Below the pieces are notes generated by a model. The model worked only from the letters and a program-made list of their open reading frames with translations, was not told the origin of the DNA and made no database searches. Positions 1,531 to 31,195 of a DNA stretch of 32,000 nt are shown in pieces (the first letter of the stretch is position 1; each line of letters opens with the position of its first letter). Both the position numbers and the translations under genes were made by a program. Source of the stretch: Flavobacteriaceae bacterium (GTDB lineage: Bacteria; Bacteroidota; Bacteroidia; Flavobacteriales; Flavobacteriaceae). Location of the stretch: the NCBI GenBank assembly GCA_965224465.1, contig OZ245049.1:510001-542000 (forward strand). Direction: 5' to 3'.

Positions 1531-1548
1531 TTCAATTATCAAACAATA

Positions 1549-6730: not shown

Positions 6731-6739
6731 ACCTTCCTC

Positions 6740-8543: not shown

Positions 8544-8573
8544 ATTTGAAAAGAATCAAATACCATAAAAAAA

Positions 8574-10345: not shown

Positions 10346-10354
10346 TTCTTATTA

Positions 10355-10555: not shown

Positions 10556-10568
10556 AATAACCAAATTT

Positions 10569-11341: not shown

Positions 11342-12460
11342 AATTCAAGTAGTAAATGCAACTTCTTAGATTTGAGAGTTTCTAAGGTTTATTTTTCAAA
11401 ACAGAAAGAGAGTCACCTCTCCTTCATGTTTTGATGGAATAGTTACCTTACGCCCTCAAGTCTCTGAAAAAGAAGTAGTATGGCACATTTAACCAAAGAA
11501 CAAAGATACACAATTACCTGTATGTTATCACAGGGGTATTCTAAGTCCAAAATAGCCTTGGCTATAGGGAAACATAAAAGCACTATAAGTAGAGAATGCA
11601 AACGTAATTGCGATGCTCGTAGCGGCTCCTATGAATACGAATTAGCACATAGAAAGTGGAAGGATAGACATAAGAAAAAGCGAAAGCACATTAGGTTTAC
11701 TGAGAAGATAAGAAGCGAGGTTGAAAAGCTGTTACGTGATGATTATAGTCCAGAACAAGTGGTTGGAATACTTACTAAGCAAGGAAAAGAAGTTGTTTCA
11801 GTAGAACGTATTTATCAGCATATCTGGCAAGATAAGAAGCATAAAGGCACACTCTATACTCATTTAAGAAGACAAGGAAGGAAGTACAGGAAACGAGGGG
11901 CATTCAAGGACTCACGTGGTATTATTAAAGATCGAATTAGTATTGAAAAACGACCAGATATAGTGGAGAAAAGAGAACGTTTTGGAGATTTAGAAGTGGA
12001 TTTAATAATTGGAAAAAATCATCATCAAGCCATTCTTACAATCAATGACAGGGCTTCTGGGATGCTAAAGATGAAAAAAATAGCATCTAAAGAATCTTCT
12101 GTTGTAACAGCTGCTATTAATGAGCTTTTAGAAGATTGGATACCGTATATAAACACTATAACAGCTGATAACGGAAAAGAGTTTGCAGGACATAAAAAAG
12201 TAGCTGAATTTTTAGGAATCGATTATTATTTTGCACATCCTTACCATTCATGGGAAAGAGGATCTAATGAAAATTTAAATGGGCTTATTCGGCAATATTT
12301 CCCTAAAGGAAGTGACTTTTCGATATTAACTAAGCAGATGATAAAACAGGTGGAAGGAAAATTAAATAGAAGGCCTAGGAAAAGGTTTTCATATCAAAAC
12401 CCTATATTTGTAATGAATCAATTATTGTTTAACCAAAAAGTTGCGTTTATAAGTTGAATT
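11342..12460 (+). mobile_element. IS30-family insertion sequence (~1.12 kb)
   Basis: Imperfect terminal inverted repeats: AATTCAAgTagTAAAtGCAACTTcTT at 11342-11367, and the reverse complement of 12435-12460 (AATTCAAcTtaTAAAcGCAACTTtTT). The transposase stop lies inside the right repeat. No clear target duplication was seen. Confidence 0.6.
11480..12457 (+). CDS. IS30-family transposase
   Basis: 325 aa. It has an N-terminal HTH (LTKEQRYTITCMLSQGYSKSKIA...STISRECKRN) and a DDE core (GDLEVDLI, ITADNGKEF, WERGSNENLNGLIRQYFPKG). Confidence 0.9.
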   Translation: MAHLTKEQRYTITCMLSQGYSKSKIALAIGKHKSTISRECKRNCDARSGSYEYELAHRKWKDRHKKKRKHIRFTEKIRSEVEKLLRDDYSPEQVVGILTKQGKEVVSVERIYQHIWQDKKHKGTLYTHLRRQGRKYRKRGAFKDSRGIIKDRISIEKRPDIVEKRERFGDLEVDLIIGKNHHQAILTINDRASGMLKMKKIASKESSVVTAAINELLEDWIPYINTITADNGKEFAGHKKVAEFLGIDYYFAHPYHSWERGSNENLNGLIRQYFPKGSDFSILTKQMIKQVEGKLNRRPRKRFSYQNPIFVMNQLLFNQKVAFIS

Positions 12461-13972: not shown

Positions 13973-15109
13973 ATGAAAAGGACAGAAATTTACATACCCG
14001 TAAAAAATGCGAAACGTATAAAAGTAAGTATTCCGTATCATAGGACAGTCCTAAGACAAAAAATTAAAGAGATAAACAGTTCCTTTTGGCATCCCAATCA
14101 AAAATTATGGTCGGTTATAAATACCGAAGAAAATTTTGAACTGTTAAAATCCATTTGTGGAAAAGACACGTTGCTTAGCGCGGAAAAGTCCCCCACTCCA
14201 CTACCCGAAGTAATTTTAAATCAGAGACAGATAGAAGCGCTATTAAACTTAGAAAAAACACTGGTGTTAAAACGCTATGGTTTATCGACCATACGCATGT
14301 ATAAAAGAATGTTTAGTTTATTTTTAATGAAATTTTCCAGTAGAGATTTGGTACAAATCACTAAACAAGAAATAGAGTCCTTTATATATGAGTTGATTAA
14401 AAAAAACGGTATTTCGGAGAGCATGCAAAACCAAATTATTAATGCCATTAAAGCCTATTATGAACATGTTTTAAAAAAACCAAGAGAATTTTACGATATA
14501 GAACGTCCCAAAAAAACGATAAACATACCAAATGTGTTAAGTGAAGAGGAAGTAGTAGCATTACTTAACAGTCCTAAAAACCTGAAACATAAGGCTATAT
14601 TATGGACAATATATAGTGCTGGCCTACGAATAAGCGAAGTATTAAATTTAAGAATTGCAGATATAAATTCGGACGACGGCTATCTTTTTATAAAAAACAG
14701 CAAAGGAAATAGAGACCGAAAAACAATCTTATCTCCTCGTTTACTCCCTTTATTAAGAAGTTATTATAAAAAATACCGTCCCTCCTATTGGTTATTTGAA
14801 GGACAAACTGGCGGAAAATATACCCAAAGTAGTATTCGTAGTTTTTTTAGACGTGCCGTAGAAGAATCCAACATAAACCCCTGGGCAACAGTACACACCT
14901 TAAGGCATTCATTTGCTACACATTGCATCATAAACCAAGTAAGTATGCGTCATGTACAGAATATGCTAGGCCATGCCTCTCCTAAAACAACCGAGATTTA
15001 CACCAAAACAATTGAAATAAATAACAAAAAAATTAAAGGACCGCTTGAAAACTTAAAAAATTTGAATACATTTAACAAAAAAACAACACACAACCCGAAA
15101 CTATTATAG
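13973..15109 (+). CDS. Tyrosine site-specific recombinase (XerC/D-like catalytic spacing with an ~80-aa N-terminal extension)
   Basis: Catalytic signature: AGLRISE (Arg), HTLRHSFATH (His-x-x-Arg), LGHASPKTTEIYT (His...Tyr). It has a SAM-like core-binding region, ESMQNQIINAIKAYYEHVL. Only about 88 aa separate box I Arg from box II His, so the extra IntI-specific insertion appears to be absent. Confidence 0.9.
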   Translation: MKRTEIYIPVKNAKRIKVSIPYHRTVLRQKIKEINSSFWHPNQKLWSVINTEENFELLKSICGKDTLLSAEKSPTPLPEVILNQRQIEALLNLEKTLVLKRYGLSTIRMYKRMFSLFLMKFSSRDLVQITKQEIESFIYELIKKNGISESMQNQIINAIKAYYEHVLKKPREFYDIERPKKTINIPNVLSEEEVVALLNSPKNLKHKAILWTIYSAGLRISEVLNLRIADINSDDGYLFIKNSKGNRDRKTILSPRLLPLLRSYYKKYRPSYWLFEGQTGGKYTQSSIRSFFRRAVEESNINPWATVHTLRHSFATHCIINQVSMRHVQNMLGHASPKTTEIYTKTIEINNKKIKGPLENLKNLNTFNKKTTHNPKLL

Positions 15110-15170
15110 AGATAACGGAAATAACGTCAAGTTTTGGAAGTTTATTGATGATATACGGGTGTTACAAAAC
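14984..15170 (+). repeat. Recombinase-3'-end/junction repeat, copy C (the functional copy)
   Basis: It covers the last ~40 codons of the recombinase plus 60 nt, ending atatacgggtGTTACAAAAC (15161-15170). It is homologous to 8364-8543 and 10355-10555. Confidence 0.85.
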
Positions 15171-15196
15171 ATTAAAACCAATTAAAACCCTAAAAA

Positions 15197-16384
15197 ATGG
15201 CTTGGATTGAAATAAAAGGTTATCCTGAAACAAGAATGAAAATTGAATTTCCTAAAGTAGTAGCTATTGATGCAATAGAATGTATTACAGATTTAGAAGA
15301 TGGTTCTGACAATCTAGGCACAAATAGTACACAGAAAGGAATGATTTACGGGAAAGAATATGAATTCAAAGTTTCTAAGTATTATAAAAATAATACACCT
15401 ACTGATGAAATGATTAAAGAGATTATTTGGGAATACTCTTATGCAAATGATGAAGGGGGTGTAACAATAACAACTCAAAAAGAATCTTCTGGAGAAAGTT
15501 TTAAATTGAAAATTGATAACCTTGAAATATTAGGTAAAAAAATATCAATTTATGCTTATTTAGGATGTAAGCAAAGTGAAGGCAATTTAGATATCTTTTG
15601 CCATAATCGGTTTAGATATTTTGACAAGGAGATAATAAAAAATGAACTAAATAAGAGGAAAAATAATCCTGAATTAGCAAATCAAAGTATGACTCCTACT
15701 TGCGGAATGGCTTCAATATTTTATATATTAGCTAAAGAAGATTTTGATAACTATCAAAACTTTATACTTGATTTACATCAAACTGGGATTGCTAAATGTA
15801 ATTCATATGAAGTTGATGTTTCTAAATGTGAGCATTTATTAGAAATGGATCCTGTTATAGATAATTTATACCCCGTGTTATATGGTAAAAAAATGCCATA
15901 TATTGATTGGATTCCTTTTTCTTGCGTTAGAGACTTAGAAAATAATTTACCCATAAGTTATAATGGCAAAATGAGCCAATCTTCATTAGATGAATTTTCA
16001 GGAGCTACATTGCCTCACGAAATAGAAAAATTAATGAAAGAGGTTTTAGGTTTCAATAAAATTATAAACGACACAAATCTCGTTTTCAATAAAGATAGCC
16101 AAGCTTTTGGCGAAATATCCGCCAGAGAATTAAAGAAATTACAAGATTTATATTTAGATGGATATAATATATGCTTATTTATTAATACAAATATGATAAG
16201 TAATAAGAAATCTGGAATTTTATCGACAATTGAACATTGGGTCGTATTCGAGGGAATTATTGGAGGAACAATTAGTTGGGATGAATATGATTTCAAAGTC
16301 TTTACTTGGGGTCGTATCGAGAAAATCATTATAAACCCAGAGTCATTCAGATCAAATTATTATGGATATGTTGCAGGTAAATAA
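15197..16384 (+). CDS. Polymorphic-toxin-like protein, variant 2, with a papain/C39-like Cys-His peptidase (or amidase) fold
   Basis: 395 aa. It shares the N-terminal 22 aa with the 8574 ORF. The candidate catalytic set is NQSMTPTCGMASIFYIL (Gln, five intervening residues, then Cys-Gly) and TIEHWVVFEG (His). A lipoprotein gene follows. Confidence 0.5.
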   Translation: MAWIEIKGYPETRMKIEFPKVVAIDAIECITDLEDGSDNLGTNSTQKGMIYGKEYEFKVSKYYKNNTPTDEMIKEIIWEYSYANDEGGVTITTQKESSGESFKLKIDNLEILGKKISIYAYLGCKQSEGNLDIFCHNRFRYFDKEIIKNELNKRKNNPELANQSMTPTCGMASIFYILAKEDFDNYQNFILDLHQTGIAKCNSYEVDVSKCEHLLEMDPVIDNLYPVLYGKKMPYIDWIPFSCVRDLENNLPISYNGKMSQSSLDEFSGATLPHEIEKLMKEVLGFNKIINDTNLVFNKDSQAFGEISARELKKLQDLYLDGYNICLFINTNMISNKKSGILSTIEHWVVFEGIIGGTISWDEYDFKVFTWGRIEKIIINPESFRSNYYGYVAGK

Positions 16385-16781
16385 AAAACTTATTTATTTC
16401 TTTTTAATCATACTACTTTCGAGTTGTAAAGAGAAAGTTAAACAATGTAGTTTGGAAAATTCTATATTTAGTAGAATTACTTTAAAAGAGTTTAAAAACT
16501 TAAGAAGTCTAAGCGTAAATGGAAAAAAAAGAAATAATCTTTTAAAGGTAAATTCTAATGGAGTCTATATAAAAATAGATTCTGAAATATACGATGAATT
16601 AAGAAAAGATAAGGTTTTGTTTGTAATTAATGATTCTTTGAACTATATCATTTCAGAAATTAGAATAGATTCTGTAGAAAGGCAAACTATGGTAAATAGA
16701 ATTAATGATTGTTTTTTGGTATCATATAAAGTTAATGACTCAATAATTTATCATCATCAAGAGATTATTATAAATCACTAA
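16362..16781 (+). CDS. Small lipoprotein, candidate periplasm-facing immunity protein
   Basis: It has a signal peptide with a lipobox, KKLIYFFLIILLSSC. It overlaps the toxin-like ORF by 23 nt (or 17 nt from Met3). Its stop lies 3 nt before the cassette-end motif. Confidence 0.5.
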   Translation: MDMLQVNKKLIYFFLIILLSSCKEKVKQCSLENSIFSRITLKEFKNLRSLSVNGKKRNNLLKVNSNGVYIKIDSEIYDELRKDKVLFVINDSLNYIISEIRIDSVERQTMVNRINDCFLVSYKVNDSIIYHHQEIIINH

Positions 16782-16792
16782 AACGTTTTGTA

Positions 16793-18648
16793 ATCGAGTA
16801 GACGGGTGACAACTGAATAGTTGCCACTGCGCCTCTCACACCACCGTACGTACGGGTCTCGTATACGGCGGTTCAAAAAATTGAAGTCTGCGTATTATTA
16901 ATGTAATCTATCAAAGGTTTATACCCTTTTCGTACAAGTCTAGATTTGGTAATGGTAGTCTTTAAAATTGGACTTTGGGCTACTGCCCATCCTCCCATTC
17001 TGGTTCTACTCCAAGCGTATGCTTGTCCATTCTCTATTCCTAATCTGATTAGGTTTTTACGTTTTCGTTCGAGTTTTTTCCAATCGTGCCAAATACAATA
17101 TCGCAACCGATTTCTTATCCACTCATCTAGCTTTTTAACTTTTGCATAGATGTTGGTTAAACGGTAATTATTCATCCAGCCTCGGCAGACTTGATTAAGC
17201 CGTTCTAAACGTTCCGACAATGACATTGGTTTGGTTTTCTTGGTAATACTCTTTAGGTTACGCTTAAACTTTGCCCAACTTTTCTTTGCTACTACTAGTA
17301 TATATTGTCCTTTTACTCCCTTTTTGTAGACTGGCACAAAGCCATGTCCTAGTAACTCAAAGTTTACGGGTCTACGAATGCCACTTTTGGCTTTATTTAT
17401 AGGTAGTTTTAATTTGTCTTTTAAGAAGACAAACAACGTATTCCCTATTTGTTTCGCCTCACGTTTGGTCTTTGCGTAAATGCTAAAATCATCTGCGTAG
17501 CGGACGTACCGTAAACCCATTCTTTTCATTTCTTTATCCAAGACGTCTAACATTATGTTAGATAGTAAGGGACTAATTGGGCTTCCTTGCGGGATTCCTT
17601 TTCTACGCTTTTGAAGTTTCCCATTTATTAAAATAGGAACTCTAAGCCATTTTCGGATTAAACGCATGGTTGTTGGACATTTTACCCTGTGGTAAATAAG
17701 TTGTAGTAGGATACAATGGTCCACTTCATCAAAGAACCCTTTAAGGTCAATATCTACAATATCTTGGTAACCATTATTGATATACTGTTGAGCTTGTAGT
17801 ACTGCTTTTTGAATGTTCTTTTGTGGTCTAAACCCAAAACTAAGTGGCTCAAAATCAAATTCGAACTGAACCATTAATTGTTGGCTTACCGCTTGCTGTA
17901 GCCATCTATCTACTACTGTTGGGATTCCTAAAAGTCTGGTTTTACCCTTGCCTTTTGGAATGCTTACTCCTAAGATTGAGTTTGGAACATAGCTATTCTT
18001 ACGGATCGTTGTTAGTATGTCTGAACGGTTTTCAACTATATAAGTTGAAAGTTCCGTTACTTTCATACCATCAACTCCGCTAGCTCCTTTATTTCGCTTC
18101 ACTTGACGTGCTGCTTTAAAAAGGTTGGTAGCTTCTAGTACTTTGTCAATCATAGGTTAAATAATTCGGGTACTCCTGTTGGTTTAAAACTAGGCTAGCT
18201 AGGCATCCTAATTGAATTTCAACGTAATTTAATGTTCTGTCCTTCCCTATTTGTGAGACCATCTGAGGTCTTTCCTCAACTCGTTTCCCATAGGTACTAT
18301 GACGTCTGCTGACTTCTCCATAGAACCAACTCCTGGCTTTGGAGACCTCCCCAGGTAATGACATCTTCTTTCACTCAATCACTGCCGTATCTACATAACT
18401 ACCCTTTTAGTATTCTTTTGGGCGTTGCAATGATGTGTTTACTTACCCAAGTAATTATACCTCTGTATACGGTTTCTGTTCGTCAGTACCGAGCTTTGTA
18501 GTCTCGCTTCCTTCAGATAAAACCTCACGGTTTTCACCCTTGCGACTTACTAATGTTTCAGAACGTTACTCCTGCACATAAGGGACTTGCACCCTCTAGA
18601 TTAATTAACTACCTTTCCGTAGTTAAAAGATGCCCATGCTGGGCACAC
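16793..18648 (-). mobile_element. Group II intron, bacterial class C (IIC), copy 1; intact, 1856 nt
   Basis: Read on the minus strand: 5' GTGTGCCCAGCATGGG, AGGGTGCAAGTCCC, CTGAAGGAAGCGAGAC, CCTGGGGAGGTCTCC, GAAGTCAGCAGACGTCATAGTACC. Domain V is GAACCGCCGTATACGAGACCCGTACGTACGGTGGTGTG, followed by a short domain VI ending ...CTACTCGAT. As I recall it, this closely parallels the Oceanobacillus iheyensis IIC ribozyme. The ends are uncertain by about 2 nt. Confidence 0.9.
16873..18153 (-). CDS. Group II intron reverse transcriptase/maturase (no endonuclease domain)
   Basis: 426 aa. RT blocks: GVDGM, RLLGIPTVVDRWLQQA, FGFRPQKN, DIDLKGFFD, GIPQGSPISPLLSN, YVRYADDFSIY. It has an X/maturase tail. The stop abuts domain V. 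Confidence 0.95.
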   Translation of the reverse strand: MIDKVLEATNLFKAARQVKRNKGASGVDGMKVTELSTYIVENRSDILTTIRKNSYVPNSILGVSIPKGKGKTRLLGIPTVVDRWLQQAVSQQLMVQFEFDFEPLSFGFRPQKNIQKAVLQAQQYINNGYQDIVDIDLKGFFDEVDHCILLQLIYHRVKCPTTMRLIRKWLRVPILINGKLQKRRKGIPQGSPISPLLSNIMLDVLDKEMKRMGLRYVRYADDFSIYAKTKREAKQIGNTLFVFLKDKLKLPINKAKSGIRRPVNFELLGHGFVPVYKKGVKGQYILVVAKKSWAKFKRNLKSITKKTKPMSLSERLERLNQVCRGWMNNYRLTNIYAKVKKLDEWIRNRLRYCIWHDWKKLERKRKNLIRLGIENGQAYAWSRTRMGGWAVAQSPILKTTITKSRLVRKGYKPLIDYINNTQTSIF

Positions 18649-18840
18649 ACAAAGTATATAAAACATAGCTAATAAGTGCTTAACCCAAAGGTCAGTGCTT
18701 ATTTACTAAGTTCCGCCAAATTTTTAATTTGGCTTTTAAAATAGAAAAGATAAAAACAAAATATAAAAATCTGGCTCTGTGCTAAACCCGAAATTTATCG
18801 TATTTTCATACGCTACGTTTCATATACAAACCGTTAGGTG
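18649..18840 (+). other. Long attC-like site (right part; the left 9 nt are at 16784-16792, split off by intron 1)
   Basis: The reconstituted left end is GTTTTGTA|AC-AAAGTATA. It has three GTGCTWA boxes, the first two 19 nt apart. The central hairpin is GCCAAATTTTTA (18715) paired with TAAAAATCTGGC (18775). The right end is TATACaaaccGTTAGGTG (18833-18840). Confidence 0.65.
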
Positions 18841-18866
18841 CAAGCTGAAAAAAAAATCCCACCGCA

Positions 18867-18917
18867 CGTTCAAGCACATTTTATTTTGCTCGTGCCTCAC
18901 AAAATAAAAAGAGCTTG
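18867..18917. repeat. Hairpin element with conserved loop CTCGTGCCTCA, copy 1 (5' leader of the 4-gene cassette)
   Basis: caagcacattttattttg - ctcgtgcctca - caaaataaaaagagcttg, with 16 of 18 stem positions paired. A second copy with compensatory stem changes is at 23758-23813. Confidence 0.6.
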
Positions 18918-19026
18918 CCCTTTCCCACCACCACCACTCAAACGAAAACAAGAATAAAACTCACAACTTTTTGAGATAAAATGAAAAAATAACTTACTTT
19001 AGTGGCTGAATAAATTACATCTAAAA

Positions 19027-19221
19027 ATGAATCGGATAAAAGAAGTTTTGGAAGAAAAAGGCATTAAACAAATTTGGCTTGCTGAGAAATTGGGGAAAAG
19101 CTATAATATGGTAAATGCTTATGTACAAAACAGACAACAACCAAGATTAGAAATTTTATTCAAGATTGCGGAAATACTGGATATTTCTGTAAAAGATTTA
19201 ATTATTGAAGCTAAAAAATAA
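19027..19221 (+). CDS. XRE-family helix-turn-helix regulator
   Basis: 64 aa. The HTH is IKQIWLAEKLGKSYNMVNAYVQNRQQP. It has a paralogue at 31196 that also heads a cassette. Confidence 0.85.
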   Translation: MNRIKEVLEEKGIKQIWLAEKLGKSYNMVNAYVQNRQQPRLEILFKIAEILDISVKDLIIEAKK

Positions 19222-19222
19222 A

Positions 19223-21190
19223 ATGACAATATTACATCCATTAGATGATTTCATATATACTCTTTTTCCAAACATTGAAAAGAGCCAAGATAGTCTTGAA
19301 ACTGCACTAACAGAATTCTATTCAGTTGGAAATGTTAAACCTATCATTGAATTCAATAAAGAATTTGTCAAAATAACTATTGACTTTCTTAAAATTGAAA
19401 CCGAAAACAAACAATTTTCAAAATTGATTTCACTATGTGAATCAGCAAATTTCGAAGAAGCCAAAATTTTAGCTGACAAATTAATTGAATTAAATCCTAA
19501 TAATTCAGAATATCACAGAATTCACGGACAAATATATTCGGAATTAGGCAATCAAGGAGAAGCAATAAATTCATTAATATATTCTTTAAGATGGAATCCT
19601 AAAAATGAATGGGCTTTACTAATGATGGGTAATATTTTCGCGAAATATCAAAACGATATTAATACCGCAATGAAATACTACGACCAAGTATTGATTGTAA
19701 AACCAAACGATTGCATTACTTTAAATAATATTGGTGCAAATTTAATGCAACTCAATAATAAAAAAGAGGCAATAATTTATTTTAATAGAGCGTTAAAATC
19801 AGACAGTAATTATCCTAACACATATTACGGGCTTGCGTTAGTTGCAAATGGTGATGAAGATTATAAAAAAGCTTTTGAATTATCACTTGTTGCATTATCA
19901 AAAACAAATAAAAAATCAAACCAACAACTTTATTCAAATTCCTTTCATTTAGCTTTAGAATCAGCAAATAAACTAAAGGAAGTTGTAAATGCAGATAAAA
20001 TAATCAAAGATTTTACTGCAAAACTCGCCTATTTATCAGAAAAAGAAATAAAAATTGAGATTGACGATACTATACTAACATCAGCAAAAATTGAATTTGC
20101 AGAAAATTATGATAGAGAATATCATTTAGTAAAGTACAAATCAAATCATATTGGTGTTGAACATTTAATACTTCATGAATTAACACATTTAGAACTAGTG
20201 TTAGAAGCTAGAAAAGAGGATTTAAACGAGCTTTTTATAAGTAATGAATCAAACAAAACCAATTTTATATACTCGCTAGAAAAAGACACTTTAAAACTTA
20301 AAAAAAATGGAGTTTCAGAAGAAAATATTACCAATTATTTTTCTGCCCTTTTCAATGGTTTAAACAGTCAAACTTTTAATACACCAATTGATTTATTTAT
20401 TGAAGATAGAATTTTTAGCAATTGGGAAGAATTAAAACCAATTCAATTTCTTTCTTTATTGTCAATATTACAGGAAGGTATTCAGGCAAATACAAATAAA
20501 GAAATTGTAAAAAATACTCCAAAAACGGTTCTTTCGAAATCAAAAATTTACAACCTAATCAATGCTTTACATTTCAAAAAACTATTTGAATTAGATTTAA
20601 TAGACCAATTTAACGCAACAAAACTTGAACTAAATCAAGCAACTGAACTTTATGCTGAATTTGAAGAATATAGAGTTGATAAAGCACCTGCAGAGGAATA
20701 CGAATTAGTAAAACATTGGGGTGAAGATTTAAAATTGGATGATTTTTACGAATTAGTACCTGAATCTGATTACCGAAAAAAAACTATAGATTCGGTACTT
20801 GAAGAAATTCAAAATGACCCATTAGGTCTGAATACTTCAAATTCATCACACGACCGTAAAATGAAAAAATTCCTAGAAGAAAATTCTTCTGAGGAAATAA
20901 ACATGGCAGTTGCCATGTTTATGGGTGATGCACTAAAACATTTTAAAGCAATTCCATTAGCAGAAACTAAAAAAATTGCTTTTGAAATTGCTACAATTGG
21001 AACTCAAGGAATAGACCCAAACCAAAAAAACTATTCAATACCTTCAATAAAAAACAGTAGTTTTTCTGGCTATAAAACTTTAGCATATTATTATGTTAGT
21101 TGGGCATTAGCTATTCCAGAAATGTTAAAACAATTGCAATTGCCTTTCGATAAAGAATATAAACTAGCTACTAAATTTTTAAAACTCTAA
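19223..21190 (+). CDS. TPR-repeat protein with an HExxH (zinc-metallopeptidase-like) motif
   Basis: The start is probably the ATG at 19223, 1 nt after the XRE stop; the tracked start at 19205 overlaps the XRE gene. At least three TPR units span residues ~80-230 (NPNNSEYHRIHGQIYSELGNQGEAI..., KPNDCITLNNIGANL..., DSNYPNTYYGLALV). The motif VEHLILHELTHLELV lies at about residue 320. Confidence 0.6.
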   Translation: MTILHPLDDFIYTLFPNIEKSQDSLETALTEFYSVGNVKPIIEFNKEFVKITIDFLKIETENKQFSKLISLCESANFEEAKILADKLIELNPNNSEYHRIHGQIYSELGNQGEAINSLIYSLRWNPKNEWALLMMGNIFAKYQNDINTAMKYYDQVLIVKPNDCITLNNIGANLMQLNNKKEAIIYFNRALKSDSNYPNTYYGLALVANGDEDYKKAFELSLVALSKTNKKSNQQLYSNSFHLALESANKLKEVVNADKIIKDFTAKLAYLSEKEIKIEIDDTILTSAKIEFAENYDREYHLVKYKSNHIGVEHLILHELTHLELVLEARKEDLNELFISNESNKTNFIYSLEKDTLKLKKNGVSEENITNYFSALFNGLNSQTFNTPIDLFIEDRIFSNWEELKPIQFLSLLSILQEGIQANTNKEIVKNTPKTVLSKSKIYNLINALHFKKLFELDLIDQFNATKLELNQATELYAEFEEYRVDKAPAEEYELVKHWGEDLKLDDFYELVPESDYRKKTIDSVLEEIQNDPLGLNTSNSSHDRKMKKFLEENSSEEINMAVAMFMGDALKHFKAIPLAETKKIAFEIATIGTQGIDPNQKNYSIPSIKNSSFSGYKTLAYYYVSWALAIPEMLKQLQLPFDKEYKLATKFLKL

Positions 21191-21194
21191 AATT

Positions 21195-21524
21195 ATGGGA
21201 GATATAAAAGAAATAACTACTGAGTTATTAAAATTTAGAAACGAAAGAGATTGGGAACAATTTCATAATCCCAAAGATTTGGCATTGGCAATAAATATTG
21301 AAGCTGGCGAATTATTGGAAGAATTTTTATGGAAAAAACCAGAAGAAGCTAAAATTGAAAAAATTAAAGAAGAATTAGCAGACGTTTTTGCTTATGCCTT
21401 TTTACTAGCTGATAAATATGATTTTAATGTTAAAAAAATAATATTAGAAAAAATAAAAAAAAATGGAGAAAAGTACCCAATAGAAAAAGCTAAGGGAACA
21501 GCTAAAAAATACAATCAATTATAA
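21195..21524 (+). CDS. MazG-like nucleoside-triphosphate pyrophosphohydrolase (all-alpha NTP-PPase, DCTPP1/YpjD-like)
   Basis: 109 aa. Motifs: FRNERDWEQFHNPKDLALAINIEAGELLEEFLWK, then EELADVFAYAFLLADKYDF. Confidence 0.8.
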   Translation: MGDIKEITTELLKFRNERDWEQFHNPKDLALAINIEAGELLEEFLWKKPEEAKIEKIKEELADVFAYAFLLADKYDFNVKKIILEKIKKNGEKYPIEKAKGTAKKYNQL

Positions 21525-23749
21525 TGTTTAGTAACTCTGTTAATGTAAAAAGTTACCCTTTTAATAAGATAGATATTGGGTTAATCAATAATGATGATTT
21601 TGCTCGTGACTCATATCCTATTGTTTACATCTTATACAATACCGAAACTATGATAGCTTATGTTGGTGAGTCAACAAATGCTATGAATAGGATGAGTAAT
21701 CATTTAGTTCATCCTGAAAAGAAGAACTTGAAATGGGTTTATATAATTTCGGATGAATCATTTAATAAATCTGCTGCTCTAGATATTGAGTCAAATCTCA
21801 TTCAGTATATGACAGCAGCTGGTAATTTTAAACTACTTAATGGTAACGGTGGCGTATCAAGTCATAATTACTACCAAAAAAATGAGTATTTCAAAATTTT
21901 TAAAGAAGTTTGGAGTAAATTATCATTTGAGAATATTAAAATGAAAGATTTATTAGAGTTAGAAAACTCTGATATATATAAATATTCACCATATAAATCG
22001 TTATCATCAGATCAATATAATTCCATCTTGGAAATATTAAAAAGTTATTCAAGTGGGAAAATAAAAACAATTTTCGTAGATGGTAGTGCGGGAACAGGAA
22101 AAACAATTTTAGCCATCTATTTAATTAAATTACTAGCCACATTATATCAATACGAACTACATGATTTAGATATTGAAGATGAATCTCTTTTGTTAGAATT
22201 AGAAGCATTTAAATTAAAGCACCCCGAAACACTTAGCCTTGCTCTTGTAGTTCCCATGACTTCACTTCGTAGCACTTTGAAAAAGGTATTTAAAAGTATA
22301 CACGGTTTGTCTGGAAATATGGTAATTGGCCCTAATGATGTGGTAAAAAAACAATATGATTTATTGATTATAGATGAATCTCATCGCTTGACACGTAGAA
22401 AATCTATTCTAGGATATGGAGCATTTGATAATGTTAATAAAAAATTAGGATTATATCATAGTGAAATAATAAACGGTAAGAGAGTACAATCAGCAGAAAA
22501 AAACGGTACACAATTAGATTGGATTACGAAATCTAGTAAATTTCAATTATTATTTTATGATGCAGAACAATCTATTAAGCCTGCAGATATAAGAAAGGAA
22601 GACTTTGATAAAATTAAGGAAAAAAGTGATGCTTTACAAATGACACTTGTTTCTCAAATGCGTTCAAAAGGAAAAAATGATTACATATCATTTGTGGATA
22701 AATTGTTAAACGAAAAACTAGATGATAATTCCACCCAATTTCATAATCCAAATTATGAGTTGGAATTATATGATGATATGTCTTTTATGATGAAGCGTTT
22801 GCAAGAAATGGAAAATAAATTTGGCTTATGTCGCACAATGTCTGGTAATTCGTGGCCTTGGGTTTCAAGAACAAATTCTAAAAAACCAGATGCCATCATT
22901 GATGGAGTCGATTTGTTTTGGAACATAAAAACAATAGATTGGATAAATTCTACAACAGAAGTTACGGAAATGGGCTGTATTCATACTGTCCAAGGCTATG
23001 ATTTGAATTATTCTGCAATAATATTTGGAGAGGAAATCACATATGATAAGCAAGAGAAAAAAATTAAAGTCATAAAAAGAAACTATCATGATGCAAAAGG
23101 AAAACAATCCTTAGGAAATGAAGATGAGTTATTAAAATACATAATTAAGATATATAAAACAATGATGTATCGTGGCATTAGAGGTACATTTATTTATGTT
23201 TGCGATAAAAATTTACGTGACTATTTTGAGAACTACATCACTCTTAATAAGCCAGAAAATAAATTAAGAATTTTACCCTTTGAAGATGTTAAACCTTATG
23301 TGAACTCTGTTCCTTTAGTTGATATTTATGCAGCTGCAGGTGAGTTTAGTGAATTGCAGATTTCAAATGAAGACTTTGATTGGGTTGAGTTACCAAAAAA
23401 TATTTCAGTTCAAGAAGGATATTTTGTTTGCCAAATAATCGGTGAATCTATGAATAAGAAAATAGAAAATGGTTCTTGGTGCTTATTTCGTAAGAAGCCT
23501 GTTGGTAGCAGAGAAGGTAAGATTGTTTTGGCTAAACATTACGATATCCAGGACTCTGATTTTGGTGCTGGATATACCGTCAAATCATATCATAGTGAAA
23601 AAAATATTTCTGAAGAAAGTTGGTCTCATAAATCAATTGTTCTAAAACCACTCTCATTTGATTCTAGTTTTAAAGACATAATATTAAGTGGAGATGAAAT
23701 AAATAAATTACAAATAGTTGGAGAATTAATTACTGTTTTAGACATTTGA
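21524..23749 (+). CDS. Three-domain fusion: GIY-YIG-like nuclease, DUF2075 (Schlafen-type P-loop NTPase/helicase-like), and S24 LexA/UmuD-like peptidase
   Basis: The ATG overlaps the MazG stop (TAATG). N-terminus: PIVYILYN...AYVGESTNAMNRMSNH...LDIESNLI. Middle: Walker A VDGSAGTGKT, Walker B LLIIDESHRL, YDAEQSI, and CIHTVQGYDLNYSAIIFG. C-terminus: VPLVDIYAAAGEF...IIGESMNKKIENGSWCLF...GKIVLAKH, with Ser in GxSM and Lys. Confidence 0.7.
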   Translation: MFSNSVNVKSYPFNKIDIGLINNDDFARDSYPIVYILYNTETMIAYVGESTNAMNRMSNHLVHPEKKNLKWVYIISDESFNKSAALDIESNLIQYMTAAGNFKLLNGNGGVSSHNYYQKNEYFKIFKEVWSKLSFENIKMKDLLELENSDIYKYSPYKSLSSDQYNSILEILKSYSSGKIKTIFVDGSAGTGKTILAIYLIKLLATLYQYELHDLDIEDESLLLELEAFKLKHPETLSLALVVPMTSLRSTLKKVFKSIHGLSGNMVIGPNDVVKKQYDLLIIDESHRLTRRKSILGYGAFDNVNKKLGLYHSEIINGKRVQSAEKNGTQLDWITKSSKFQLLFYDAEQSIKPADIRKEDFDKIKEKSDALQMTLVSQMRSKGKNDYISFVDKLLNEKLDDNSTQFHNPNYELELYDDMSFMMKRLQEMENKFGLCRTMSGNSWPWVSRTNSKKPDAIIDGVDLFWNIKTIDWINSTTEVTEMGCIHTVQGYDLNYSAIIFGEEITYDKQEKKIKVIKRNYHDAKGKQSLGNEDELLKYIIKIYKTMMYRGIRGTFIYVCDKNLRDYFENYITLNKPENKLRILPFEDVKPYVNSVPLVDIYAAAGEFSELQISNEDFDWVELPKNISVQEGYFVCQIIGESMNKKIENGSWCLFRKKPVGSREGKIVLAKHYDIQDSDFGAGYTVKSYHSEKNISEESWSHKSIVLKPLSFDSSFKDIILSGDEINKLQIVGELITVLDI

Positions 23750-23757
23750 AAAGCCAA

Positions 23758-23813
23758 CGTAAGTTCAAGCACATTTAAAGTTTGCTCGTGCCTCACAAAT
23801 TTAAAAGAGCTTT
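23758..23813. repeat. Hairpin element with conserved loop CTCGTGCCTCA, copy 2 (3' trailer of the 4-gene cassette)
   Basis: caagcacatttaaagtttg - ctcgtgcctca - caaatttaaaagagcttt. It has the same loop as copy 1, and the stem sequence changes on both arms. Confidence 0.6.
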
Positions 23814-23860
23814 CACGCCAACGCTAGTAAGTTTGCGGAAAGAAAAAAGCCAGACACCTA

Positions 23861-25765
23861 ATCGAGTAGACGGGTGACAACTGAATAGTTGCCACTGCGC
23901 CTCTCACACCACCGTACGTACGGGTCTCGTATACGGCGGTTCAAAAAATTGAAGTCTGCGTATTATTAATGTAATCTATCAAAGGTTTATACCCTTTTCG
24001 TACAAGTCTAGATTTGGTAATGGTAGTCTTTAAAATTGGACTTTGGGCTACTGCCCATCCTCCCATTCTGGTTCTACTCCAAGCGTATGCTTGTCCATTC
24101 TCTATTCCTAATCTGATTAGGTTTTTACGTTTTCGTTCGAGTTTTTTCCAATCGTGCCAAATACAATATCGCAACCGATTTCTTATCCACTCATCTAGCT
24201 TTTTAACTTTTGCATAGATGTTGGTTAAACGGTAATTATTCATCCAGCCTCGGCAGACTTGATTAAGCCGTTCTAAACGTTCCGACAATGACATTGGTTT
24301 GGTTTTCTTGGTAATACTCTTTAGGTTACGCTTAAACTTTGCCCAACTTTTCTTTGCTACTACTAGTATATATTGTCCTTTTACTCCCTTTTTGTAGACT
24401 GGCACAAAGCCATGTCCTAGTAACTCAAAGTTTACGGGTCTACGAATGCCACTTTTGGCTTTATTTATAGGTAGTTTTAATTTGTCTTTTAAGAAGACAA
24501 ACAACGTATTCCCTATTTGTTTCGCCTCACGTTTGGTCTTTGCGTAAATGCTAAAATCATCTGCGTAGCGGACGTACCGTAAACCCATTCTTTTCATTTC
24601 TTTATCCAAGACGTCTAACATTATGTTAGATAGTAAGGGACTAATTGGGCTTCCTTGCGGGATTCCTTTTCTACGCTTTTGAAGTTTCCCATTTATTAAA
24701 ATAGGAACTCTAAGCCATTTTCGGATTAAACGCATGGTTGTTGGACATTTTACCCTGTGGTAAATAAGTTGTAGTAGGATACAATGGTCCACTTCATCAA
24801 AGAACCCTTTAAGGTCAATATCTACAATATCTTGGTAACCATTATTGATATACTGTTGAGCTTGTAGTACTGCTTTTTGAATGTTCTTTTGTGGTCTAAA
24901 CCGACCAACGGGAGCTCATGAACTCCCTAAAATAAAAAGCTGTGAATAACCCAAAACTAAGTGGCTCAAAATCAAATTCGAACTGAACCATTAATTGTTG
25001 GCTTACCGCTTGCTGTAGCCATCTATCTACTACTGTTGGGATTCCTAAAAGTCTGGTTTTACCCTTGCCTTTTGGAATGCTTACTCCTAAGATTGAGTTT
25101 GGAACATAGCTATTCTTACGGATCGTTGTTAGTATGTCTGAACGGTTTTCAACTATATAAGTTGAAAGTTCCGTTACTTTCATACCATCAACTCCGCTAG
25201 CTCCTTTATTTCGCTTCACTTGACGTGCTGCTTTAAAAAGGTTGGTAGCTTCTAGTACTTTGTCAATCATAGGTTAAATAATTCGGGTACTCCTGTTGGT
25301 TTAAAACTAGGCTAGCTAGGCATCCTAATTGAATTTCAACGTAATTTAATGTTCTGTCCTTCCCTATTTGTGAGACCATCTGAGGTCTTTCCTCAACTCG
25401 TTTCCCATAGGTACTATGACGTCTGCTGACTTCTCCATAGAACCAACTCCTGGCTTTGGAGACCTCCCCAGGTAATGACATCTTCTTTCACTCAATCACT
25501 GCCGTATCTACATAACTACCCTTTTAGTATTCTTTTGGGCGTTGCAATGATGTGTTTACTTACCCAAGTAATTATACCTCTGTATACGGTTTCTGTTCGT
25601 CAGTACCGAGCTTTGTAGTCTCGCTTCCTTCAGATAAAACCTCACGGTTTTCACCCTTGCGACTTACTAATGTTTCAGAACGTTACTCCTGCACATAAGG
25701 GACTTGCACCCTCTAGATTAATTAACTACCTTTCCGTAGTTAAAAGATGCCCATGCTGGGCACAC
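23861..25765 (-). mobile_element. Group IIC intron, copy 2; 1905 nt, RT-defective
   Basis: It matches copy 1 wherever I compared the two, and the RT translations are identical outside the lesion. The exception is a 49-nt insertion at 24901-24949. It sits at the same position of an attC-like site (CACCTA|intron|AC). Confidence 0.9.
23941..25270 (-). pseudogene. Disrupted intron RT/maturase
   Basis: The RT reading frame is split into a 124-aa N-terminal ORF (24896-25270, ending in out-of-frame residues) and a 283-aa remainder (23941-24792). The cause is the 49-nt insertion inside the FGFRPQKN block. Confidence 0.9.
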
Positions 25766-25956
25766 ACAATGTATAAAAAACATAGGGCGGTTTGTGCTAA
25801 ACTCTAAGTTCTGTGCTTGTTTACAAAGTCCGCTAAATATAAAATTTGGCATTTAGGAGAAAAATAAAAGCAAAATATTTATATTTAGCTAAGTAATAAA
25901 CCGAAACTAAAGTGCTTATTTATTGCCCTACGTTTCTTATACTAACCGTTGGCAAC
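25766..25956 (+). other. Long attC-like site (right part; the left end is at 23855-23860)
   Basis: The reconstituted left end is CACCTA|AC-AATGTATA. It has three GTGCT boxes. A perfect 12-bp central stem joins GCTAAATATAAA (25832) and TTTATATTTAGC (25889). The right end is TATACtaaccGTTGGCAAC (25948-25956). Confidence 0.65.
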
Positions 25957-26000
25957 AAGCAAAACAGAGATCCAATAAAATATAAAACAAAGAATTCTAA

Positions 26001-26531
26001 ATGGAAATTTTAAATATTGAAATAAAAGCAAAATCGGACAACCAAACTGAAATTAGGAATATCCTGAAATCAAAAAATGCTAAATATAAAGGAACTGACC
26101 ACCAAATTGATACGTATTTTAATGTTAACAATGGACGATTGAAATTAAGAGAAGGAAATATTGAAAACAACTTAATCCATTATATTAGAGAAAATAAAAA
26201 AGGACCAAAACAATCAAAAATAATTCTTTTTAATTCAGAGCCCAATTCTACTTTAAAAGAATTATTGACTGTTGCAAACGGAATTTTAACAGTAATTGAT
26301 AAAGAAAGAGAAATATATTTTATTGAAAATGTGAAATTTCATATTGATACTGTAAAAGAATTAGGAACTTTTATAGAAATTGAAGCAATTGATAAAGATG
26401 GAAGTATTGGAAAAGATAAATTATTATTACAATGTGAATACTATCTTGATTTATTTAATATTCCCAAAGAAAACCTGATATCTGTTTCATATAGTGATTT
26501 GAAATTAAAAGAAAAAATGAGAATGAAATAA
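26001..26531 (+). CDS. CYTH-domain protein (CyaB-like class IV adenylyl cyclase / triphosphate tunnel enzyme)
   Basis: 176 aa. It has the N-terminal EIEIK-type motif (NIEIKAK), then DTYF, RLKLRE, KEREIYFIENVKFHIDTVKELGTFIEIEA, and SYSDL near the C-terminus. Confidence 0.75.
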   Translation: MEILNIEIKAKSDNQTEIRNILKSKNAKYKGTDHQIDTYFNVNNGRLKLREGNIENNLIHYIRENKKGPKQSKIILFNSEPNSTLKELLTVANGILTVIDKEREIYFIENVKFHIDTVKELGTFIEIEAIDKDGSIGKDKLLLQCEYYLDLFNIPKENLISVSYSDLKLKEKMRMK

Positions 26532-26543
26532 AGCCAGTTGCCA

Positions 26544-28448
26544 ATCGAGTAGACGGGTGACAACTGAATAGTTGCCACTGCGCCTCTCACACCACCGTAC
26601 GTACGGGTCTCGTATACGGCGGTTCAAAAAATTGAAGTCTGCGTATTATTAATGTAATCTATCAAAGGTTTATACCCTTTTCGTACAAGTCTAGATTTGG
26701 TAATGGTAGTCTTTAAAATTGGACTTTGGGCTACTGCCCATCCTCCCATTCTGGTTCTACTCCAAGCGTATGCTTGTCCATTCTCTATTCCTAATCTGAT
26801 TAGGTTTTTACGTTTTCGTTCGAGTTTTTTCCAATCGTGCCAAATACAATATCGCAACCGATTTCTTATCCACTCATCTAGCTTTTTAACTTTTGCATAG
26901 ATGTTGGTTAAACGGTAATTATTCATCCAGCCTCGGCAGACTTGATTAAGCCGTTCTAAACGTTCCGACAATGACATTGGTTTGGTTTTCTTGGTAATAC
27001 TCTTTAGGTTACGCTTAAACTTTGCCCAACTTTTCTTTGCTACTACTAGTATATATTGTCCTTTTACTCCCTTTTTGTAGACTGGCACAAAGCCATGTCC
27101 TAGTAACTCAAAGTTTACGGGTCTACGAATGCCACTTTTGGCTTTATTTATAGGTAGTTTTAATTTGTCTTTTAAGAAGACAAACAACGTATTCCCTATT
27201 TGTTTCGCCTCACGTTTGGTCTTTGCGTAAATGCTAAAATCATCTGCGTAGCGGACGTACCGTAAACCCATTCTTTTCATTTCTTTATCCAAGACGTCTA
27301 ACATTATGTTAGATAGTAAGGGACTAATTGGGCTTCCTTGCGGGATTCCTTTTCTACGCTTTTGAAGTTTCCCATTTATTAAAATAGGAACTCTAAGCCA
27401 TTTTCGGATTAAACGCATGGTTGTTGGACATTTTACCCTGTGGTAAATAAGTTGTAGTAGGATACAATGGTCCACTTCATCAAAGAACCCTTTAAGGTCA
27501 ATATCTACAATATCTTGGTAACCATTATTGATATACTGTTGAGCTTGTAGTACTGCTTTTTGAATGTTCTTTTGTGGTCTAAACCGACCAACGGGAGCTC
27601 ATGAACTCCCTAAAATAAAAAGCTGTGAATAACCCAAAACTAAGTGGCTCAAAATCAAATTCGAACTGAACCATTAATTGTTGGCTTACCGCTTGCTGTA
27701 GCCATCTATCTACTACTGTTGGGATTCCTAAAAGTCTGGTTTTACCCTTGCCTTTTGGAATGCTTACTCCTAAGATTTAGTTTGGAACATAGCTATTCTT
27801 ACGGATCGTTGTTAGTATGTCTGAACGGTTTTCAACTATATAAGTTGAAAGTTCCGTTACTTTCATACCATCAACTCCGCTAGCTCCTTTATTTCGCTTC
27901 ACTTGACGTGCTGCTTTAAAAAGGTTGGTAGCTTCTAGTACTTTGTCAATCATAGGTTAAATAATTCGGGTACTCCTGTTGGTTTAAAACTAGGCTAGCT
28001 AGGCATCCTAATTGAATTTCAACGTAATTTAATGTTCTGTCCTTCCCTATTTGTGAGACCATCTGAGGTCTTTCCTCAACTCGTTTCCCATAGGTACTAT
28101 GACGTCTGCTGACTTCTCCATAGAACCAACTCCTGGCTTTGGAGACCTCCCCAGGTAATGACATCTTCTTTCACTCAATCACTGCCGTATCTACATAACT
28201 ACCCTTTTAGTATTCTTTTGGGCGTTGCAATGATGTGTTTACTTACCCAAGTAATTATACCTCTGTATACGGTTTCTGTTCGTCAGTACCGAGCTTTGTA
28301 GTCTCGCTTCCTTCAGATAAAACCTCACGGTTTTCACCCTTGCGACTTACTAATGTTTCAGAACGTTACTCCTGCACATAAGGGACTTGCACCCTCTAGA
28401 TTAATTAACTACCTTTCCGTAGTTAAAAGATGCCCATGCTGGGCACAC
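26544..28448 (-). mobile_element. Group IIC intron, copy 3; 1905 nt, RT-defective
   Basis: It has the same 49-nt insertion (27584-27632) as copy 2. It also has a G-to-T change at 27778 that converts RT codon TCA (Ser in VPNSILG) to TAA. It is inserted at GTTGCCA|intron|AC. Confidence 0.9.
26624..27953 (-). pseudogene. Disrupted intron RT/maturase (insertion plus nonsense mutation)
   Basis: The 283-aa C-terminal ORF is intact (26624-27475). The N-terminal part is no longer an ORF because of the TAA created at 27777-27779 on the minus strand. Confidence 0.85.
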
Positions 28449-28635
28449 ACAATGTATATAATTAATGCGGGGTTTGTGCTTAATTCAAAGAGCTGTGCTT
28501 TCTACAAACAACGCCAAATATAAAATTTAGTTTGTAGAAAAAAATACAAGCAAAATTATTATATTTGGCTAAGTGCTAAACCGAAAAGATAATTCTTTTA
28601 AGTTCCGCACTAATCATATACCAACCGTTATGGGC
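28449..28635 (+). other. Long attC-like site (right part; the left end is at 26537-26543)
   Basis: The reconstituted left end is GTTGCCA|AC-AATGTATA. It has three GTGCT boxes. The central stem joins GCCAAATATAA (28513) and TTATATTTGGC (28569). The right end is ATATACcaaccGTTATGGGC (28627-28635). Confidence 0.65.
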
Positions 28636-28668
28636 AAGTGAAAAAATCCCCACATTAAATAAATTGAA

Positions 28669-30966: not shown

Positions 30967-31039
30967 CACGTGCTCATACATCATAGCTTTGCCGCAGGCG
31001 CAACACAAAGATACGCTGCATAGCACCACCGTTACCTGC
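30959..31039 (+). other. Short (81-bp) attC-like site, intron-free
   Basis: GCCCATAAC-ac-GTGCTcATaCA...TGcATAGCAC-cacc-GTTACCTGC. It has R-type ends AAC/GTT, unequal spacers (2 vs 4 nt), and an imperfect inner stem with bulged bases. Confidence 0.6.
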
Positions 31040-31195
31040 AAGCGAAAAAACAGCCAGCCGCACAAAAAAAGAGTGCCAAAAAAGGCACACATTGTTTTTT
31101 ACCCACCACATTTAACCATTACAATTAAACGACTTTTCTCATTAGAATTTAATGATTTATTATTAAGTTTACAGCATAATTAAATCTGTTCGAAA

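Follow-up and report, generated by a model that had tools for sequence, protein, structure and literature searches.

Four genes on one integron-type cassette

We analyzed a stretch of 32,000 nucleotides (nt) from a Flavobacteriaceae bacterium (assembly GCA_965224465.1, contig OZ245049.1, positions 510,001 to 542,000), hereafter the window. Position 1 is its first letter. Four adjacent genes of the plus strand occupy positions 19027-23749. They encode a small XRE-family protein with a helix-turn-helix (HTH) fold, a protein that joins tetratricopeptide repeats (TPR) to an HExxH motif, a MazG-like pyrophosphohydrolase, and a nuclease-helicase with a LexA-like tail. We refer to the last one as the effector. 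The four genes are one operon on one mobile integron-type cassette, whose features are as follows (aa, amino acids).

18835 to 23859, plus strand: integron-type gene cassette; start G↓TTAGGTG (GTTAGGTG at 18835), inverse CACCTAA (R''-like) at 23853-23859
18871 to 18917, plus strand: 47-nt imperfect hairpin in the leader, about 110 nt upstream of the XRE gene, with 18-nt arms that are 89% complementary; candidate operator or terminator-like cis element
19027 to 19221, plus strand: XRE-family HTH protein, 64 aa, presumed repressor (HTH_3, phage repressor PHROGs, XRE of contig L174)
19223 to 21190, plus strand: TPR and HExxH protein, 655 aa; small N-terminal alpha/beta unit, TPR helices at aa 55-272, C-terminal domain at aa 275-655
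20174 to 20188, plus strand: HELTH (HExxH) motif, aa 318-322; H318, E319 and H322 invariant (alignments A1 and A2)
21195 to 21524, plus strand: MazG-like all-alpha nucleoside triphosphate pyrophosphohydrolase, 109 aa (PF12643), closest to DCTPP1/RS21-C6
21524 to 23749, plus strand: effector, 741 aa; GIY-YIG nuclease, DUF2075/Schlafen-group-3 helicase of the superfamily 1 (SF1) type, and LexA-like S24 domain (Pfam, alignment A3)
21617 to 21853, plus strand: GIY-YIG nuclease domain, aa 32-110; PF01541 with E = 2.8e-5 (aa 32-94), PADLOC model PDC-S14 with E = 1.3e-9 in the same region
22067 to 23206, plus strand: DUF2075/Schlafen-group-3 helicase core, aa 182-561; PF09848 with E = 1.4e-54
23309 to 23746, plus strand: S24 LexA-like domain, aa 596-741; Ala605-Gly606 in PLVDIYAAAGE, Ser642 in GESM, Lys687 in YTVK
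23767 to 23812, plus strand: second copy of the hairpin, 18 nt past the last stop codon

The genes are almost contiguous. The gaps measure 1 nt between XRE and TPR and 4 nt between TPR and MazG, and the MazG and effector genes overlap by 1 nt in a TAATG. An earlier sequence-only reading of this DNA had described four co-directional genes with exactly this spacing on a single cassette. Both descriptions are borne out, with the cassette ends now placed at 18835-23859 by terminal complementarity. Pfam likewise confirmed all of its domain calls (the HELTH motif was read directly at aa 318-322), and its gene positions stand. The TPR protein is 655 aa long from the ATG at 19223, not 656; this start is supported by homologues that begin with MTII.

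The cassette is unusually large for its type, with 5 kb, four genes, and a regulator of its own. That it is a single cassette holds on two observations, namely the complementarity of its start and end and the start motif that it shares with the rest of the array. In the window, AACCGTTRNNNRCAAG marks four consecutive cassette starts, with 0.11 expected by chance. No terminator-like site was found on the plus strand within the four-gene block. A sigma-70 promoter scan gave fewer matches than shuffled sequence, with a model that does not cover Bacteroidota promoters.

The MazG gene and the effector gene form a conserved pair

The 109-aa MazG gene lies directly upstream of the GIY-YIG-DUF2075(-S24) gene in 71 of the 74 metagenome loci with enough sequence. 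The same arrangement is present in all five long contigs with unrelated flanks. More distant pairs of MazG and DUF2075 genes (about 30% identity) reside on Bacillus mycoides megaplasmids, annotated as 'nucleotide pyrophosphohydrolase' and 'DUF2075 domain-containing protein'. On a Halomonas replicon the order is reversed, with a DUF2075-S24 gene followed by MazG. By these metagenome, Bacillus, and Halomonas occurrences, the pair of MazG and nuclease-helicase is a conserved unit across at least three phyla. A chance adjacency of four unrelated genes was rejected on the conservation counts across loci.

Larger combinations also recur. Metagenome contig L177 carries the full quartet and aligns to 18848-23745 at 79% nucleotide identity, with a split TPR gene. 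The trio of TPR, MazG, and effector is found again in L090, L178, and dozens of species. Seen from the pair, the TPR-HExxH gene precedes MazG in 13 of the 45 loci with enough upstream sequence. So the earlier view of the four genes as a unit stands for their recurrence, whereas the conserved unit is the pair, to which the TPR gene is an accessory first gene and XRE a rare addition.

Seen from the TPR gene, MazG comes next in 59 of the 71 TPR loci with enough downstream sequence. The third position of these 71 loci is occupied by GIY-YIG-DUF2075(-S24) in 35, by another DUF2075 type in 11, and by a pair of McrB-like AAA_5 and DUF2357/PD-(D/E)xK genes in nine. The N-terminal domain of the 619-aa DUF2075 variants had no sequence match in PDB. 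Twelve TPR loci lack a downstream MazG (L021, L041, L053, L054, L060, L063, L068, L069, L070, L072, L083, and L086), and the open reading frames (ORFs) that follow there include some of 1027-1220 aa.

Variation around the pair takes several forms. The pair on the Bacillus mycoides megaplasmids L169 and L171 has a gene for an HNH endonuclease just upstream, which may serve Bacillota as a different accessory. The MazG protein is about 200 aa long in L028, L030, L044, L046, L058, L076, and L011, with a 95-aa N-terminal extension of no assigned family. In L013 and L087, an extra gene of the endonuclease/exonuclease/phosphatase family separates TPR from MazG.

The flanks of 67 loci are heterogeneous. 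Their 125 proteins hold 148 Pfam families, and no family appears in more than three. The contents range from housekeeping genes to RhuM, Fic, the YhcG nuclease, and a methylase, with two members each of SRAP and DinB_2. A minority of flank proteins match PADLOC, with three members for PbeA and two for each of the models PDC-S02, S05, S22, and S23. Such non-conserved neighbours fit an autonomous mobile module. In Tenacibaculum soleae (L009), a full-length CapP (E = 4e-61) is encoded directly upstream of the TPR gene.

The 2.9 M viral contigs of IMG/VR are essentially devoid of the module. A phage origin was considered and rejected. IMG/VR gave no close relatives of the effector and one TPR match at the end of a contig, and GenBank phages gave remote matches only.

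The effector carries conserved nuclease, helicase, and LexA-like motifs

We examined the catalytic residues of the effector in an alignment of 24 sequences (A3). The GIY-YIG residues Y35, Y46, G48, R56, E89, and N106 are invariant. So are the Walker A motif G187-T194 (GSAGTGKT) and the DExH motif D284-E285-x-H287 of the helicase core.

The C-terminal tail matches Peptidase_S24 (PF00717) at aa 602-674, with E = 4.9e-6 and 26.7 bits against a gathering cutoff of 23.3. Its S642 (GxSM) and K687 (YTVK) are invariant in 15 diverse homologues. We take the YTVK context of K687 to be that of LexA K156 in TVKRL. The Ala-Gly site is mostly conserved; in alignment, it falls on the region where T. maritima LexA is cleaved. 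The top PDB profile matches of the tail are all LexA, at a marginal E of about 0.05, and a CI-repressor PHROG matches effector aa 593-733 with E = 3.5e-6.

We found about 5,663 homologues of the effector. Many are 579-aa forms without the S24 tail, at about 78% identity. These close relatives suggest that the tail is a regulatory add-on.

The MazG-like protein resembles dCTP pyrophosphatase 1

The MazG-like protein matches PF12643 with E = 1.7e-20 and 73.5 bits. It presents the four-helix fold with the ExxE...ExxD metal-binding motifs, whose residues E36, E39, E42, E60, and D63 reach 95% conservation or more across 138 sequences. Judging from the aligned motifs, the catalytic sites are intact in all the enzymes of the cassette.

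The best solved relatives of this protein are the mouse and human dCTP pyrophosphatase 1 (PDB 6sqw, DCTPP1, E = 1.7e-16). Both share the block ERDWEQFH...GEL.E.F.WK. DCTPP1 hydrolyses dCTP and affects how 5-methyl-dCTP is metabolized, and its family has been called a 'house-cleaning' enzyme of the deoxynucleoside triphosphate (dNTP) pool. The shared ERDWEQFH and F.WK blocks are what points to a possible preference of the MazG-like protein for dCTP or 5-modified dCTP.

The effector is exchanged for an McrBC-like pair

Four metagenome contigs (L173-L176) carry the same cassette with another effector. They align to window positions 18853-21511 at 88% nucleotide identity. This alignment includes the leader hairpin and the genes for XRE, TPR, and MazG, the last of them up to shortly before its stop codon. 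A second stretch, at 90%, is 23748-24000, with the 3' hairpin, the R'' of the attC, and the first part of the same group II intron. Between the aligned stretches lie a gene for a 538-aa McrB-like protein and a gene for a 736-aa protein with DUF2357 and PDDEXK_7. The break points coincide with gene boundaries. A module has here been exchanged naturally, with the cassette frame left in place.

In PADLOC, only the candidate system PDC-M26 matches the swapped pair. The match to E. coli McrB is marginal (E = 0.076). The N-terminus of the McrB-like protein had no sequence match in PDB. The exchange is the strongest indication that the role of the 741-aa protein is of the same kind as that of a restriction-type nuclease complex, since an McrBC-like pair in the same position implies equivalent roles. 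It argues for a DNA-targeting, defence-type role of the effector.

Accessory genes and hairpin elements

In the TPR protein, Pfam recognizes only TPR families, at about aa 83-235. An alignment of 62 sequences shows H314, H318-E319-x-x-H322, and D390-x-F392-I393-E394 as invariant. AlphaFold2 models had a mean confidence (pLDDT) of 88 for the full-length protein and 87 for the isolated C-terminal domain. They place HELTH in a predicted helix at 312-331, preceded by three beta strands. The invariant HExxH, with the invariant E394 as candidate third ligand, would suit a zincin, and the fold searches gave best E-values of 0.8 (PDB) and 0.097 (BFVD), neither of them significant. The full-length model retrieved TPR proteins only. 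At E <= 10, Pfam gave weak matches of the C-terminal domain to eCIS_core/DUF4157 (E = 0.03-0.25) in three of ten sequences. The C-terminal domain is modelled with confidence, as a fold that has no solved or viral structural neighbour.

Clustered at 50% identity, the family of this domain falls into 664 groups, almost all of which share one 650-aa architecture. In a collection of one genome per species, the protein is present in at least 278 loci. They are mostly from Bacteroidota, with single metagenome-assembled genomes labelled Ignavibacteriales, Balneolaceae, and Planctomycetota.

Two other identities of the TPR protein were considered. It has no match to PF06114 (M78), capP, or RmrA. An ImmR/ImmA or CapH/CapP pair made of XRE and the HExxH protein was rejected on three grounds: an M78 match is lacking, most loci have no XRE, and L009 contains a true CapP as well. 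Some sources name the protein as BepA/M48 or as a pilus-assembly TPR protein. We rejected these names as well, because the TPR arm alone matches, far under the cutoffs.

The XRE protein matches HTH_3 (E = 1e-11) and phage repressor PHROGs, and it is 95% identical in amino acids to the XRE of L174. It also shows weak matches to capH (E = 9e-4) and to the HipB antitoxin. Only 20 of 76 loci have an HTH gene upstream of TPR, often one of another XRE subfamily. XRE is thus an occasional add-on to the module. In L005 and L094, XRE lies directly upstream of MazG, the TPR gene is missing, and the effector is the 579-aa form without S24. Such loci give a hint that XRE and S24 may stand in for each other as layers of control.

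The hairpin lies at both cassette ends and may be an operator or a terminator. Its loop TTGCTCGTGCCTCACAAA occurs twice in the window, with 0 expected, and again about 120 nt upstream of XRE in L173-L176.

The integron-like array and its surroundings

The cassette belongs to an integron-like array that spans 13973-31040, with a tyrosine recombinase and at least four cassettes on the same strand. The recombinase (13973-15109) falls short of the integron-integrase cutoffs, with 180 bits on TIGR02249 (cutoff 265) and 188 on a XerA/integron model (cutoff 220). Four consecutive cassettes start with G↓TT and carry, near their end, the inverse complement of their own first bases. More precisely, a G↓TTRRRY start with an R'' complementary to the first bases is present at 15161/16785, 18835/23853, 25948/26535, and 28628/30960. 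The other features of the array are listed below.

15161 / 16785: cassette start and end pair, GTTACAAAAC and its inverse
25948 / 26535: cassette start and end pair, GTTGGCAAC and GTTGCCAA
28628 / 30960: cassette start and end pair, GTTATGGGC and GCCCATAAC
23860 to 25769, minus strand: group II intron (class-C-like), Rfam RF02001 with 126 bits, at the R'' end of the four-gene cassette's attC; reverse-transcriptase ORF split

An intact attC of 75 nt at 30958-31033 has the same design as the end of the four-gene cassette. Three copies of the group II intron lie on the minus strand (16792-18652, 23860-25769, and 26543-28452), and they differ by one substitution and a 49-nt indel. The first two flank the four-gene block. 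In three of the four attC sites, an intron sits exactly at the R'' end, in the orientation opposite to cassette transcription. An intact reverse transcriptase/maturase of 426 aa is encoded by the first copy alone; the other two carry 49 extra nt, and their ORF is split into 124 and 283 aa. In the contigs L173-L176, the attC is occupied by this intron at an identical position. An intron remnant was also observed at 10244-10345.

A semi-conserved sequence of about 180 nt separates each intron 5' end from the start of the next cassette (18653-18834, 25770-25947, and 28453-28627). It includes the stem-loop CCGCCAAATTTTTAATTTGGC (18714-18734) and is far longer than the rest of the intact 75-nt attC.

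The sequence-only reading had assigned toxin, HEPN-like, CYTH, and restriction-like cargo to the neighbouring cassettes. The CYTH assignment holds. A single-gene cassette at 26001-26531 encodes a CYTH/CyaB-like protein (class IV adenylate cyclase-like), with PF01928 at E = 3e-13 and TIGR00318 below its cutoff. The other assignments were not confirmed. The remaining window neighbours match no defence, toxin, or HEPN family in Pfam, and none of the eight neighbouring ORFs scanned matches a PADLOC model; CYTH and DUF6402 are the only recognizable families. Another single-gene cassette at 28669-30966 encodes a 765-aa protein without a match in Pfam, NCBIfam, or PADLOC, and the stop codon of this gene falls within the attC R'' (GCCCATAAC).

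A pair of paralogous ORFs (about 391-395 aa) lies at 8341-9749 and 14967-16384, with about 230 nt of upstream sequence in common. The first matches DUF6402 and the second has no Pfam match. A third copy of their upstream repeat is present at 10353-10583. In the stretches 1-8182 and 11480-12457 lie minus-strand cobalamin genes that border the variable region, with CobQ-like, CobD-like, and aminotransferase-like proteins and a TonB-dependent receptor, and an IS30-like transposase (HTH_38 and rve) inside that region. A cobalamin riboswitch at 3965-4162 lies ahead of these cobalamin genes and the receptor.

Comparison with known systems

PADLOC-DB v2 does not list the gene combination as a named system. 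Text searches of the literature retrieved no paper that joins DUF2075 or Schlafen with MazG, or that describes a system of MazG and a GIY-YIG nuclease. The absence of a named match is upheld within these searches; however, a close kind exists.

This kind is represented by Nhi of S. epidermidis (SERP2475; PD-(D/E)xK and DUF2075) and Nhi-like (NERD and DUF2075; Millman et al. 2022), which are experimentally shown anti-phage proteins. Millman et al. found no sequence identity between the two. A 2019 paper had speculated that fusions of DUF2075 with nucleases act in phage attenuation. Like Nhi and Nhi-like, the 741-aa effector has an N-terminal nuclease and a DUF2075 (PF09848) helicase core of the SF1 type in one polypeptide. 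However, its nuclease is GIY-YIG instead of PD-(D/E)xK or NERD, and it adds a C-terminal LexA-like S24 domain. It is also adjoined by MazG (71/74 loci) and often by TPR-HExxH, so that it is almost never alone. In a PADLOC scan (E <= 0.01), it matched PDC-S14, PDC-S41, AbiO, PDC-M16A, and a type IV DinG model, none of which is named Nhi.

The likeness to McrBC (type IV) lies in the McrB-like AAA_5 and DUF2357/PD-(D/E)xK genes that occupy the effector position of the 88-90% identical cassettes; the window itself has no McrBC genes. With DCTPP1/RS21-C6, its best solved-structure match, the MazG-like protein shares sequence blocks and the conserved acidic metal ligands. In contrast, it is a bacterial protein of 109 aa fixed in an operon with nucleases. 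The effector tail resembles LexA, lambda CI, and UmuD in its PLV..AAG site motif, GxSM serine, TVK lysine, and S24 match. Nevertheless, it is located at the C-terminus of a nuclease-helicase and not on a DNA-binding repressor domain, and its self-cleavage is a prediction.

At the operon head, a small XRE repressor followed by an HExxH protein recalls CapH/CapP and ImmR/ImmA. Moreover, a true CapP heads a homologous module in one species (Tenacibaculum soleae). The TPR-HExxH protein differs from these regulators in its 655 aa, its TPR arm, its unmatched fold, and the lack of an M78, ImmA, or CapP match. In addition, about three quarters of its loci have no XRE at all.

Interpretation of the module

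From the domains and gene neighbourhoods compared above, we infer a defence role and a mechanism for the module. Most likely, the pair is akin to the Nhi anti-phage enzymes and has not been described before. For the cassette as a whole, we lean to a self-contained, DNA-targeting system against phages or mobile elements, of the Nhi kind, with a nucleotide-pool partner and a DNA-damage switch. We hold this reading to be somewhat probable. The sequence-only reading had proposed a candidate undescribed defence or abortive-infection module of four genes. Its operon is conserved and apparently undescribed, whereas the unit is a pair with accessories, and the architecture is of the Nhi kind.

In such a system, the effector would unwind and cut invading or replicating DNA, as Nhi does. 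Filaments of RecA on single-stranded DNA, or another damage signal born of infection, might trigger the self-cleavage of S24. This cleavage would relieve an autoinhibited or dimeric state and so set the nuclease-helicase free. The MazG-like enzyme may hydrolyse dCTP or 5-modified dCTP. Phages whose DNA is built with modified cytosine could thereby be starved, or the host chromosome could be kept free of such nucleotides and so be spared by the effector. The front end of XRE, TPR, and MazG also drives an McrBC-like pair of the type IV, modification-dependent kind, which fits the idea of modified dCTP. As an optional component, the TPR-HExxH protein would sense or regulate, binding proteins through its TPR arm and probably acting as a zinc hydrolase. 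XRE would be an optional repressor and may bind the conserved leader hairpin.

A wider formulation is unlikely in our estimation. It holds that a DCTPP1-like enzyme would serve as a 'nucleotide-pool guard' for DNA-targeting effectors, either GIY-YIG-DUF2075 or McrBC-like. Modified dCTP would be destroyed, hypermodifying phages would be denied it, and recycled modified nucleotides would be prevented from making the host chromosome a target. A RecA-responsive LexA-like tail and a TPR and zinc-hydrolase sensor of new fold would complete the design. If true, it would be a new organizing principle, in which a pool-sanitizing partner serves modification-dependent restriction with plug-in effectors.

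Several observations weigh against a defence system of the Nhi kind with a self-cleaving tail. The Ala-Gly site is not invariant and reads AAT and AAS in L027 and L074. The PADLOC matches of the effector are weak and concern candidate models only (PDC-S14 and PDC-S41), and the MazG-like and TPR proteins match no PADLOC model. The isolated C-terminal domain of the TPR protein gave no significant structural match in PDB or BFVD, peptidases included. The defence-island context that the sequence-only reading had seen was not corroborated. Eight neighbouring ORFs of the window have zero PADLOC matches, and most flanks of the 67 loci elsewhere are not recognizable defence genes, with many housekeeping genes among them. 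Finally, an S24 domain, a nucleotide-sanitizing enzyme, and a GIY-YIG nuclease-helicase are equally readable as a DNA-damage response.

This last point leads to an SOS-type module for repair or damage tolerance, a rather improbable reading but the foremost of the rivals. In it, MazG would clear damaged or non-canonical dNTPs, the GIY-YIG-helicase would process lesions or stalled forks like UvrC-type nucleases, S24 would tie the system to RecA, and TPR-HExxH would be a protease on damaged complexes. The LexA-like domain with its conserved dyad agrees with it, as do the house-cleaning function described for the DCTPP1 family and the many housekeeping flanks, with SRAP and DinB_2 among them. However, the module is patchily distributed and differently located in every genome. 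It travels on an integron cassette and on megaplasmids, its effector is exchangeable with an McrBC-like restriction pair in the same cassette frame, and one locus has the CapP regulator of immune operons upstream. The role of effector could instead fall to MazG, which is the most constant component across effector types. Abortive infection would then proceed by dNTP depletion, the nuclease-helicase would be the sensor or activator (for example, by making or recognizing DNA ends), and TPR-HExxH would gate the response. A 2026 preprint predicts that MazG-like enzymes can replace the dNTP-depleting effector in PUA-HAD systems. Nevertheless, the 109-aa protein is the catalytic four-helix unit alone, without a regulatory domain, and an unregulated general dNTPase would be toxic. 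Its interchangeable partners (GIY-YIG-DUF2075 and McrBC-like) are complete nucleases themselves. We regard this reading as less probable than repair.

We give the least credence to an addiction module that stabilizes the cassette or the array in the manner of a toxin-antitoxin system, a quite improbable reading. The nuclease-helicase would be the toxin, MazG, XRE, or TPR would neutralize or repress it, and any effect on phages would be incidental. Large chromosomal integron arrays are known to carry toxin-antitoxin cassettes. The tight translational coupling of the genes would suit this reading, and so would an XRE-type first gene, which is common in toxin-antitoxin operons and here has a weak HipB-antitoxin match. 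Conversely, XRE is missing from most loci, and the pair is mostly found outside integrons, at ordinary chromosomal sites. MazG retains all its catalytic metal ligands, which fits an enzyme better than a stoichiometric antitoxin. Repair, dNTP depletion, and addiction fit the mobility and the effector exchange less well than a DNA-targeting defence system of the Nhi kind does.

Meaning of the module

Candidate defence systems are now numerous, and the effector is of a known architectural kind. It makes the module an interesting lead instead of a first-order surprise. By the evidence of its genes, it is a real, conserved, and apparently undescribed system. The exchange of effectors within near-identical cassettes offers a ready-made natural experiment on modularity.

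If the defence role is true, a widespread system would be added to those known. Its TPR gene alone was counted at 278 loci or more in reference genomes, from Bacteroidota and neighbouring phyla, and its pair extends to Bacillota and Pseudomonadota. Human relatives of the Schlafen-group-3-type helicases respond to DNA damage and viruses. A defence role would link such helicases with pool enzymes of the human DCTPP1 type, and with a LexA-type self-cleavage that switches an enzyme rather than a repressor.

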